From assembly GCF_044324785.1 (NCBI RefSeq), contig NZ_CP172127.1: DNA of 64,000 nt; one strand, 5' to 3'. The DNA is from Escherichia coli. GTDB taxonomy: Bacteria; Pseudomonadota; Gammaproteobacteria; Enterobacterales; Enterobacteriaceae. Below the pieces are notes generated by a model. The model was not told the origin of the DNA. It worked only from the letters and a program-made list of their open reading frames with translations, and searched no databases. Shown in pieces: positions 2,125 to 54,427 of this stretch (position 1 is its first letter; each line of letters starts with the position of its first letter). The position numbers and the translations under genes were made by a program.

Positions 2125-2151
2125 CGTTGCTGTGTCTGATACGAATTGTAA

Positions 2152-2252
2152 ATATGCCCGATGCGCAAGCTTATCGGGCCTACAAGGGAAGCGTAACTTT
2201 GAATTCGCACTCACTGTAGGTTGGATAAGGCGTTTACGCCGCATCCAACATG
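2152..2252. repeat. REP/BIME element, two inverted REP copies
   Basis: gcccgatgcgcaagcttatcgggcctac and gtaggttggataaggcgtttacgccgcatccaac both resemble the REP consensus, in the convergent yggR/yqgF gap. Confidence 0.7.
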
Positions 2253-40749: not shown

Positions 40750-40898
40750 GCTGTAACGGTAAAGCCCTCACCGAAGCGAGGGCTTGAAGGAGAAGGGTTA
40801 TGATGCGACTTGTCATCATACTGATTGTACTGTTACTCATAAGTTTCCCAGCTTATTAACAGTCAGTCTCAGGGGAGGAGTCATCCTCCCTTACCCTT
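40750..40898 (-). ncRNA. sibC: antisense antitoxin sRNA SibC (ends approximate)
   Basis: Reverse-strand promoter-like TTGACA (40929-40934), 17-nt spacer, TAATTT (40906-40911), just outside the ibsC stop; Sib RNAs are fully antisense to ibs ORFs; ends inferred. Confidence 0.5.
40800..40859 (+). CDS. ibsC: type I toxin IbsC (19-aa hydrophobic peptide)
   Basis: ATG 40800; translation MMRLVIILIVLLLISFPAY; SD gaaggag upstream; in the serA-ygfA gap where K-12 has sibC/ibsC. Confidence 0.75.
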   Translation: MMRLVIILIVLLLISFPAY

Positions 40899-40959
40899 AC
40901 TCACTAAATTAGGTTAAAGAATCAACGATGTCAATCAGGGCGATGCAGGTGTGTCGCCC

Positions 40960-41580: not shown

Positions 41581-41765
41581 AGGGAATCTCCGAGATGCCG
41601 CCGCAGGCTGTAACCCTTGAACCCTTGGTTCAAGGTGAATGTGTCGTCGCAGTTTTAAGGCTTCTCGGACGGACCGAGCATGCTCACCAACCGCGGAGCG
41701 CCACATTCTTGTGGTATGAAATATCGGCTCAGGGGACTGGCCCGCTTGCGAACATCTCAGAGAAA
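41581..41765 (-). ncRNA. ssrS: 6S RNA
   Basis: Reverse complement reads ATTTCTCTGAGATGTTCGCAAGCGGGCCAGTCCCCTGAGCCGATATTTCATACCACAAGAATGTGGCGCTCCGCGGTTGGTGAGCATGCTCGG...GGAGATTCCCT, which I recognise as E. coli 6S RNA. Confidence 0.9.
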
Positions 41766-41807
41766 TTTTGTCTTCACGGTTACTCTACCACAGTAAACCG
41801 AAAAGTG

Positions 41808-48707: not shown

Positions 48708-51581
48708 ATGACACAGACGTTAAGCCAGCTTGAAAACAGCGGCGCTTTTATTGAACGCCATATCGGACCGGACGCCGCGCAACAGCAAGAAATGCTGAAT
48801 GCCGTTGGCGCACAATCGTTAAACGCGCTGACCGGCCAGATTGTGCCGAAAGATATTCAGCTTGCGACCCCGCCGCAGGTTGGCGCACCGGCGACCGAAT
48901 ACGCCGCGCTGGCGGAACTCAAGGCTATTGCCAGTCGCAATAAACGCTTCACGTCTTACATCGGCATGGGTTACACCGCCGTGCAGCTACCGCCGGTTAT
49001 TCTGCGTAACATGCTGGAAAATCCGGGCTGGTATACCGCGTATACTCCGTATCAACCTGAAGTCTCCCAGGGCCGCCTTGAAGCACTGCTCAACTTCCAG
49101 CAGGTAACGCTGGATTTGACCGGGCTGGATATGGCCTCTGCTTCTCTTCTGGACGAGGCCACTGCTGCCGCCGAAGCAATGGCGATGGCGAAACGCGTCA
49201 GCAAACTGAAAAATGCCAACCGCTTCTTCGTTGCTACTGACGTCCATCCGCAAACGTTGGATGTGGTACGTACTCGTGCCGAAACCTTTGGTTTTGAAGT
49301 GATTGTCGATGACGCGCAAAAAGTGCTCGACCATCAGGACGTCTTCGGCGTGCTGTTACAGCAGGTTGGCACAACCGGTGAAATCCACGACTACACTGCG
49401 CTCATCAGCGAACTGAAATCACGCAAAATTGTGGTCAGTGTCGCCGCCGATATTATGGCGCTGGTGCTGTTAACTGCGCCGGGTAAACAGGGCGCGGATA
49501 TTGTTTTTGGTTCGGCGCAACGCTTTGGCGTACCGATGGGTTACGGTGGCCCACACGCGGCATTCTTTGCGGCGAAAGACGAATACAAACGCTCAATGCC
49601 GGGCCGTATTATCGGTGTATCGAAAGATGCAGCTGGCAACACCGCTCTGCGCATGGCGATGCAGACTCGCGAGCAACATATTCGTCGTGAGAAAGCGAAC
49701 TCCAACATTTGTACTTCCCAGGTGCTGCTGGCAAACATCGCCAGCCTGTATGCCGTTTATCACGGCCCGGTTGGCCTGAAACGTATCGCTAACCGCATTC
49801 ACCGTCTGACCGATATCCTGGCGGCGGGCCTGCAACAAAAAGGTCTGAAACTGCGTCATGCGCACTATTTCGACACCTTGTGTGTGGAAGTGGCCGACAA
49901 AGCGGGCGTACTGACGCGTGCCGAAGCGGCTGAAATCAACCTGCGTAGCGATATCCTGAACGCGGTTGGGATCACCCTTGATGAAACCACCACGCGCGAA
50001 AACGTGATGCAGCTTTTCAGCGTGCTGCTGGGCGATAACCACGGGCTGGAGATCGACACGCTGGACAAAGACGTGGCTCACGACAGCCGCTCTATTCAGC
50101 CTGCGATGCTGCGCGACGACGAAATCCTCACCCATCCGGTGTTTAATCGCTACCACAGCGAAACCGAAATGATGCGCTATATGCACTCGCTGGAGCGTAA
50201 AGATCTGGCGCTGAATCAGGCGATGATCCCGCTGGGTTCCTGCACCATGAAACTGAACGCCGCCGCCGAGATGATCCCAATCACCTGGCCGGAATTTGCC
50301 GAACTGCACCCGTTCTGCCCGCCGGAACAGGCAGAAGGTTATCAGCAGATGATTGCGCAGTTGGCTGACTGGCTGGTGAAACTGACCGGTTACGACGCCG
50401 TTTGTATGCAGCCGAACTCTGGCGCACAGGGCGAATACGCGGGCCTGCTGGCGATTCGTCATTATCATGAAAGCCGCAACGAAGGGCATCGCGATATCTG
50501 CCTGATCCCTGCCTCTGCGCACGGCACTAACCCGGCTTCCGCGCATATGGCAGGCATGCAGGTGGTGGTTGTGGCGTGTGATAAAAACGGCAACATCGAT
50601 CTGACTGATCTGCGCGCGAAAGCAGAACAAGCGGGCGATAACCTCTCCTGTATCATGGTGACCTATCCTTCCACCCACGGCGTGTATGAAGAAACGATCC
50701 GTGAAGTGTGTGAAGTCGTGCATCAGTTCGGCGGTCAGGTTTACCTTGATGGCGCGAACATGAACGCCCAGGTCGGCATCACCTCACCGGGCTTTATTGG
50801 CGCGGACGTCTCGCACCTTAACCTGCATAAAACTTTCTGCATTCCGCACGGTGGCGGCGGCCCTGGTATGGGACCGATCGGCGTGAAAGCGCATCTGGCA
50901 CCGTTTGTGCCAGGTCATAGCGTGGTACAAATTGAAGGCATGTTAACCCGTCAGGGCGCGGTTTCTGCGGCACCGTTCGGTAGCGCCTCTATCCTGCCAA
51001 TCAGCTGGATGTACATCCGCATGATGGGCGCAGAAGGGCTGAAAAAAGCAAGCCAGGTGGCAATTCTTAACGCCAACTATATTGCCAGCCGCCTGCAGGA
51101 TGCCTTCCCGGTGCTGTATACCGGTCGTGACGGTCGCGTGGCGCACGAATGTATTCTCGATATTCGTCCGCTGAAAGAAGAAACCGGCATCAGCGAACTG
51201 GATATTGCCAAGCGTCTGATCGACTACGGTTTCCACGCGCCGACCATGTCATTCCCGGTGGCGGGTACGCTGATGGTTGAACCGACCGAATCCGAAAGCA
51301 AAGTGGAACTGGATCGCTTTATCGACGCGATGCTGGCTATCCGCGCAGAAATTGACCAGGTGAAAGCCGGTGTCTGGCCGCTGGAAGATAACCCGCTGGT
51401 GAACGCGCCGCACATTCAGAGCGAACTGGTCGCCGAGTGGGCGCATCCGTACAGCCGTGAAGTTGCGGTATTCCCGGCAGGCGTGGCAGACAAATACTGG
51501 CCGACAGTGAAACGTCTGGATGATGTTTACGGCGACCGTAACCTGTTCTGCTCCTGCGTACCGATTAGCGAATACCAGTAA
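48708..51581 (+). CDS. gcvP: glycine dehydrogenase (decarboxylating), P protein
   Basis: Start at [33 protein letters not shown] (957 aa). Confidence 0.96.
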
Positions 51582-51603
51582 TTCACTGATTCGACTATTT
51601 TCT

Positions 51604-51627
51604 AAAGGCGCTTCGGCGCCTTTTTAG
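51604..51627 (+). terminator. gcvP intrinsic terminator
   Basis: aaaggcgc-ttcg-gcgccttt followed by tta. Confidence 0.8.
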
Positions 51628-51744
51628 CTTGTTAATAAAGTGCGCTTTGTGTGTCGGATGAAGCGTAAATATAAACTCCTGGAGTTCAATATATGACAGG
51701 AGCGCCAGGCCTGATGAGCGGGGCGCATCAGGCACATCGGGTAA

Positions 51745-53205
<1,461 letters not shown>

Positions 53206-54357: not shown

Positions 54358-54392
54358 TGGGGGTACCTTTGTAGGCCTGAAAAGACACACCC

Positions 54393-54427
54393 GTGTCGCA
54401 TCAGGCGATAAATGCCTGATGCGACAC
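54393..54427. terminator. bidirectional hairpin (REP-like palindrome) between convergent yqfA and ygfZ
   Basis: gtgtcgcatcaggc-gataaat-gcctgatgcgacac, 14-bp stem. Confidence 0.6.

Follow-up and report, generated by a model that had tools for sequence, protein, structure and literature searches.

The window, by which we mean the whole 64,000-nucleotide stretch of Escherichia coli DNA that was analysed, carries an allele of the gcvP-bglA interval without ygfF, and this allele is common and very probably old and derived from a single deletion of about 0.9-1.0 kb. The same site was found to hold ygfF in Citrobacter, Superficieibacter, Metakosakonia, Klebsiella and an unclassified Escherichia, and the ygfF-less state was observed in about 43% of complete E. 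coli genomes.

The gcvP-bglA interval in the window and in K-12

Both genes that border the interval were located from the open reading frame list and from the RefSeq annotation of E. coli strain XDL (NZ_CP043033.1) mapped onto the window.

48708-51581, plus strand: gcvP, glycine decarboxylase (957 aa), intact
51745-53178, minus strand: bglA, 6-phospho-beta-glucosidase A, intact and convergent with gcvP

The amino acid sequences of GcvP (over 957 aa) and BglA are 99.7% and 99.0% identical to those of K-12 respectively. The gcvP stop codon ends at position 51581 and the bglA stop codon occupies 51745-51747, which leaves an intergenic gap of 163 bp (51582-51744). A 1163-bp probe from the window was found to be 100% identical to strain XDL, where the RefSeq annotation has no feature between gcvP and bglA. 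In K-12 MG1655 bglA (b2901) is followed by ygfF (b2902, 744 bp) and then by gcvP (b2903), with ygfF running in the same direction as gcvP, and the gap between gcvP and bglA is 1066 bp, a net difference of 903 bp from the window. Pairwise alignment of the two shows identity from gcvP through the terminator (up to ...GGCGCCTTTTTAG) which resumes at the bglA stop codon, and between these identical flanks there are 117 nt in the window versus about 1020 nt in K-12.

An earlier sequence-only reading of the window had placed the two convergent genes 163 bp apart, had put ygfF between bglA and gcvP in K-12 and had proposed an indel relative to K-12. The distance was exact to the base and the other two statements were borne out by the alignment, in which the K-12 gene lies in this interval and not elsewhere and the two gaps differ in length. 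K-12 ygfF occupies exactly the interval of the window and nothing of the gene is left there. A tblastn search of the 64-kb window with K-12 YgfF gave no match at E<1e-5, and comparison of the 117-nt spacer with K-12 ygfF and with the spacers upstream and downstream of it revealed no ygfF remnant above shuffled sequences (z of -1.2 to 1.5).

Frequency of the alleles in E. coli

Alleles were counted by searches against 5426 complete E. coli genomes. The DNA of K-12 ygfF was found in 3057 of them, always on the chromosome and, except in four genomes, at a single place. The 117-nt spacer of the window (S1) occurs in 423 genomes and a second short spacer (S2) in 1927, including O157:H7, O55:H7, CFT073, 536 and BEN2908. 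Genomes with ygfF, S1 or S2 make up 5407 of the 5426, and a further 17 carry an AT-rich insert (the T allele) at the locus. When ygfF and the S1 spacer were concatenated into one query, 3480 genomes were matched, which is exactly 3057 + 423; the two sets are thus disjoint at megablast sensitivity, and no S1 genome carries ygfF anywhere.

The two short spacers can be aligned over their whole length, have their junctions in common and show 86% identity. Since they are colinear and share a junction, they are best read as one event that has diverged since. An assembly artefact was ruled out by the occurrence of the short junction in 2350 independent complete genomes, and the ygfF-less allele is a widespread polymorphism, not a peculiarity of this strain. 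As far as titles and abstracts tell, none of the listed papers that mention ygfF appears to address its distribution.

Direction of the change

The arrangement gcvP→ygfF→←bglA was observed in Citrobacter werkmanii, Superficieibacter electus, Metakosakonia massiliensis and a genome whose YgfF protein is labelled 'unclassified Escherichia', where YgfF is 83%, 79%, 85% and 97% identical in amino acid sequence to that of K-12 respectively. Klebsiella variicola also has gcvP→ygfF (YgfF 83% identical to K-12), with other genes beyond. The search of genome contigs with the GcvP C-terminus returned mostly distant taxa, with six useful Enterobacterales loci among the matches listed; the E. albertii contig reaches 321 bp past gcvP, and E. 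fergusonii, E. marmotae and Salmonella lie outside the comparison. The earlier reading had left the choice between a deletion here and a gain in K-12, and the conserved adjacency of gcvP and ygfF in other genera and in the unclassified Escherichia settles it: the absence is derived, by deletion.

In addition, nucleotide differences between the ygfF alleles of E. coli reach 7%, which is near their distance to the allele of the unclassified Escherichia, and diversity of this extent implies that the gene is old in E. coli. The divergence from Citrobacter is 25% for ygfF versus 15% for the flanks, so the gene has evolved about 1.7 times faster than its neighbours. Judged from synteny and divergence, ygfF is ancestral for the family and old in Escherichia, and the state of the window is a loss. 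No insertion sequence, integrase or tRNA, as would be expected beside an inserted gene, was found near the K-12 ygfF segment; a boxC repeat and a REP-like hairpin are all that flanks it.

Decay of ygfF was also encountered in Enterobacter sp. Bisph1, where the gcvP-bglA gap is 284 bp (L009:6904-7187) and holds an internally deleted ygfF in which the first ~14 codons (MAVALVTGSSRGIG) are joined to the last ~30 codons. This is an independent internal deletion; Bisph1 keeps pieces of ygfF whereas the window keeps none.

The gcvP terminator

The gap was said by the sequence-only reading to hold the gcvP terminator together with a REP-like palindrome, and both were recognised on closer analysis. 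The first is a stem-loop followed by a T run.

51604-51625, plus strand: intrinsic terminator of gcvP, AAAGGCGC, loop TTCG, GCGCCTTT, then TTTTT

The hairpin starts 23 nt past the gcvP stop codon, and its stem-loop (51604-51623) has an 8-bp stem, a TTCG loop and a predicted RNA fold of -12.7 kcal/mol. By sequence and predicted fold it has the GC-rich stem-loop, the T run and the position just past a stop codon which characterise a Rho-independent terminator. The consensus promoter and terminator scan did not call it, probably because A/T pairing prolongs the stem into the run of T. The terminator was found to be common to all alleles at the locus, namely those of K-12, O157, B2, E. albertii and the unclassified Escherichia.

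The REP-like hairpin and the BIME-1 remnant

The spacer between the terminator and bglA can be divided into the following parts, none of which was assigned a strand.

51628-51706: decayed left part of a BIME-1, from a multiple alignment that included the E. albertii spacer and, in reverse complement, the N96 BIME-1
within 51628-51706: conserved box TGTTAATAAAGTGCGCTTTGTG, from the multiple alignment
51654-51666: y-REP remnant GTCGGATGAAGCG, from the multiple alignment
51686-51695: L-linker remnant TTCAATATAT, from the multiple alignment
51707-51734: z1-type REP remnant AGGCCTGATGAGCGGGGCGCATCAGGCA, from pattern search, folds and comparison with related REPs
51735-51744: 10-nt tail CATCGGGTAA, adjoining the bglA stop codon

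REPs have been defined as extragenic palindromic hairpins of 30-40 nt with a GTAG 5' of the hairpin foot, and mismatches in their stem are needed for binding of TnpA-REP (PMC3333891). In BIME-1, one z1 and one y REP lie in inverse orientation and are separated by a long L linker (PMC3333891). The palindrome GCCTGATGAGCGGGGCGCATCAGGC at 51709-51733 is the sole such site in the 64-kb window, where 0.03 would be expected by chance, and it folds with about -15 to -16 kcal/mol on either strand. The whole hairpin (51707-51734) lies between two stop codons and has an 8-bp stem plus two inner pairs, as a REP hairpin would. CCAG is found in the window in place of the GTAG before GCCTGATG, and the GCCTGATG/CATCAGGC stem is perfect, whereas the REP copies of E. 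albertii and N96 have the usual A/G stem mismatch (CTGATAAG...CATCAG). The window hairpin is identical to the E. albertii REP at 22 of 24 positions and to the GTAG-bearing z-type REP of the N96 BIME-1 at 24 of 28, and the colinear spacers of N96 and E. albertii indicate that its ancestor was a canonical REP in this orthologous position. A hairpin that has lost both GTAG and the stem mismatch is a decaying remnant, of z1 type, for which 'REP-like' was an apt description. A z1 consensus, allowing up to three mismatches, gave no match in the window; the identification of the REP thus rests on the REPs of related loci and of the window. Canonical GTAG-bearing REPs occur elsewhere in the window as a REP pair at 54371-54425 (the trhA-ygfZ gap) and a z-type REP near 2170 (window 2143-2183, minus strand), with GTAGGCC present there and at 54371.

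Beyond the hairpin, what remains of the BIME-1 is about 13 nt of the y REP and about 10 nt of the linker, in an order and spacing that agree with N96; the element is incomplete. The multiple alignment shows that the short spacer is colinear with the E. albertii spacer after the gcvP terminator and, once this is reverse-complemented, with the intact BIME-1 which lies between gcvP and ygfF in N96 and in the unclassified Escherichia. The intact element consists of a z-type REP with CTAC/GTAG, an L-type linker and a y REP. The spacer of the window therefore resembles the REP and BIME-1 elements of E. coli in being extragenic and between convergent genes, in its 28-nt palindrome with z1-type arms (GCCTGAT.../...ATCAGGC) and in having y and L remnants in the right order, but differs from them in the CCAG, in the missing mismatch bubble and in the truncation of its y REP and linker.

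In the K-12 gcvP-ygfF spacer (L001:7903-8168), and at the same position in most ygfF-bearing alleles, a boxC-type repeat (CCCCTCGCCCCTTTGGGGAGAGGGTTAGGGTGAGGGG...) was found in place of the BIME remnant. The repeat of K-12 has been described as two 'HPGQ' G-quadruplex-hairpin elements (PMC5100583). It takes the same position as the BIME-1 remnant of the window, just past the gcvP terminator, but is unrelated in sequence: the window has no boxC repeat and K-12 has no BIME there. In the ygfF-bearing strain N96 (L088:668-900) the terminator hairpin occurs twice, and in the unclassified Escherichia (L092:2096-2500, GCA_004323655.1) three times, with the intact BIME-1 between copies; the terminator and the BIME form a tandemly duplicated unit in both, where BIME-1 is inverted relative to the remnant of the window.

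A proposed deletion junction and history

The tails next to the bglA stop codon are CATCGGGTAA in S1 and CATCGGCTAA in S2. In ygfF-bearing alleles the hairpin between ygfF and bglA is followed by CATCAGCTAA (unclassified Escherichia) or CATCAGATAA (AST240), and by its sequence the 10-nt tail of the window appears to be homologous to these. The arms before the tails are also alike, with GCATCAGGCA in the z1 REP (about 51725-51734) and GCATCCGGCA in the downstream hairpin. Local alignments of arm plus tail matched 17 of 20 positions for the window and 18 of 20 for the O157-type short allele, with z of 4.6 to 7.5 against shuffled sequences. In E. albertii the REP is followed by CAGTTTGTTAG, a motif found upstream of ygfF in K-12.

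These observations suggest the following history. The ancestral arrangement of the Enterobacteriaceae would have been gcvP, ygfF and a convergent bglA. In the ancestor of Escherichia, ygfF would have had a BIME-1 (y REP, L linker and z1 REP) on its gcvP side, after the terminator, and a REP-like hairpin on its other side, before the stop codon of bglA. A single deletion, about 0.9-1.0 kb long, may then have joined the similar right arms of the z1 REP (GCATCAGGCA) and of the downstream hairpin (GCATCCGGCA). With it ygfF would have gone, together with its leader and the hairpin downstream, while the gcvP terminator, a BIME-1 in decay and, adjoining bglA, the 10-nt tail would have stayed. As in other deletions between short repeats or REPs in enterobacterial genomes, the junction would lie in a shared 10-nt arm, GCATC(A/C)GGCA, but the junction of the window differs in having been reconstructed from related alleles.

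Deletion between the right arms of the two hairpins that bracket ygfF is the simplest history that we could infer, and we give this step about an even chance. The reason is that the undeleted parent was not found: no allele was observed to hold both ygfF and a BIME-1 in the orientation of the window, which counts against our main explanation. The parent had to be pieced together, its left side from E. albertii and its right side from the unclassified Escherichia and AST240. Other observations also weigh against it. BIME-1 is inverted in N96 and the unclassified Escherichia and is replaced by the boxC/HPGQ repeat in K-12. The similarity of the tails is partly that of generic REP arms, and only the 10 nt beyond the arm are specific to the locus. 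Furthermore, the 86% identity of S1 and S2 is far lower than that of the flanking genes, which needs great age, fast decay or gene conversion.

Other alleles and the flanking sequence

In the T allele, ygfF is replaced by an AT-rich insert of about 1.3 kb with a gene for an outer-membrane-type protein of the Phenol_MetA_deg family (PF13557). In E. coli SWHEFF_68 (NZ_CP055022.1, L096:5830-7224) this gene is interrupted at codon 46 by an in-frame TAG, which separates the signal peptide from the rest, and the RefSeq annotation is limited to the 249 aa downstream, under the name 'transporter'. In E. albertii NBRC 107761 (L008:2616-2787), the 321 bp available past gcvP are 74% similar to the start of the T insert, and E. 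albertii probably has the T allele as well. In E. coli HH97 (NZ_CP116409.1, L091:1766-2601) the ygfF region consists of 836 bp of garbled, G+C-enriched sequence that is recognisable only in its last 47 bp, which looks like a local assembly or consensus error and not biology.

The last 780 nt of bglA (window 51745-52524) were found to be unusually diverse, with 94.5-98.6% identity among E. coli strains, and the last codons of the gene vary with the allele class (TTAAAGCTT, TTACAGATT and TTAAATCTT). The similarity of the flanks does not track the presence of ygfF, as the flanks of AST240 are closest to the window-type short allele. Sequence variation of this kind suggests frequent recombination at the bglA 3' region. 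At Rfam gathering thresholds the whole window gave two matches, 6S RNA (ssrS, 139.8 bits) at 41583-41766 and a Sib antitoxin RNA (136.5 bits) at 40784-40934, both on the minus strand and both as expected for this chromosomal neighbourhood; no other family was matched.

Alternative readings of the short allele

The strongest competitor to deletion from a ygfF-bearing ancestor, though an unlikely one, holds that the short interval is ancestral in E. coli, so that the window would show the species-ancestral state, and that phylogroups A and B1 and Shigella regained ygfF from another Escherichia lineage, by homologous recombination in the conserved flanks, gcvP and bglA. CFT073, 536, O157:H7 and O55:H7, which are described in the literature as B2 and E strains, all have the short interval, and these two groups usually take a basal position relative to A/B1. 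Divergence between the short alleles is itself deep, at 86% identity, and E. albertii has a homologous spacer with no ygfF within the 321 bp available. The region is also mosaic, the gcvP and bglA flanks of the ygfF-bearing AST240 being closest to the window-type short allele. Against this reading, four further genera and the unclassified Escherichia have ygfF at this site and in this orientation, which makes its absence derived at some level in any case. The diversity of ygfF within E. coli (up to 7%) is what its faster rate would lead one to expect and fits a long residence, and the short allele has a tail that comes from a ygfF-bearing one.

The distribution is nevertheless awkward for the single deletion that we favour. 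With ygfF presumably in A/B1 and missing from B2, E and others, a single loss on a clean tree does not fit unless recombination or ancestral polymorphism is invoked. As the flanks are mosaic, A/B1 could have regained ygfF by recombination after an early loss; if they did, the reading of the window would be unchanged.

We consider it less probable still that the interval is a long-lived recombination hot spot with at least four deeply diverged and mutually exclusive allele classes that are kept by balancing or niche-specific selection on YgfF and not by neutral loss. The classes would be ygfF with boxC, ygfF with BIME-1, an empty interval with a BIME remnant (in two subtypes) and the AT-rich insert with the outer-membrane protein gene. 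REP-type hairpins would in that case serve as breakpoints of repeated replacement.

That the gap is functional in itself, encoding either a small protein of 16 codons (ATG at 51694) or a small RNA derived from the 3'-UTR, is very improbable. The 117-nt spacer folds better than its shuffles (z = -2.5 and -2.9), an ATG-initiated frame of that length is present and the S1 spacer is 100% conserved in most of its 423 carriers. However, the stability of the folding comes from the REP and terminator hairpins, which have already been accounted for, and conservation in the 423 genomes reflects their close relatedness. The ATG and its frame are missing from the S2 type (1927 genomes), and the small ORF was rejected as not conserved there. 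Rfam at E <= 1 matched no family over the gap, and a promoter consensus scan of the gap showed no promoter-like site.

An origin from the T allele, by deletion of the AT-rich insert and not of ygfF, is the least credible of all: the first ~40 nt past the terminator are nearly identical in the T and short alleles and the linker remnant TTCAATATAT is common to both, but next to the bglA stop codon the T allele reads GTTACCCGCCGACTGGCGGGTAAC ACGCAGGAG, which has no relation to the window tail, and this tail matches ygfF-bearing alleles instead, and the E. coli T allele is devoid of the z1 REP that the short alleles have kept.

Function of the interval and biological meaning

The 163 bp most likely serve only as a 3' region which the two convergent transcription units have in common. 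Transcripts of gcvTHP are predicted to end at the terminator, and the REP hairpin, perhaps together with the terminator read backwards, may end or stabilise the bglA transcripts, of which the z1-type REP remnant probably forms the 3' hairpin.

YgfF is an oxidoreductase of the SDR family for which the only reported activity is that of a glucose 1-dehydrogenase in vitro (PMC10645960), and its gene is one of the still poorly understood 'y-genes'. What was found is real, yet it is a presence/absence polymorphism of an ordinary kind, with a REP/BIME scar, and involves no new system, element or mechanism. The locus serves as an example of REP/BIME elements that indicate where a small deletion began and ended and that decay afterwards. 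For the organism, the window belongs to a strain without this short-chain dehydrogenase, and the gene is dispensable, as it is missing from ~43% of complete E. coli genomes, among them those of important pathogens (O157:H7, CFT073 and 536). This is a caveat for treating the gene content of K-12 as the norm of the species and for studying the function of YgfF.
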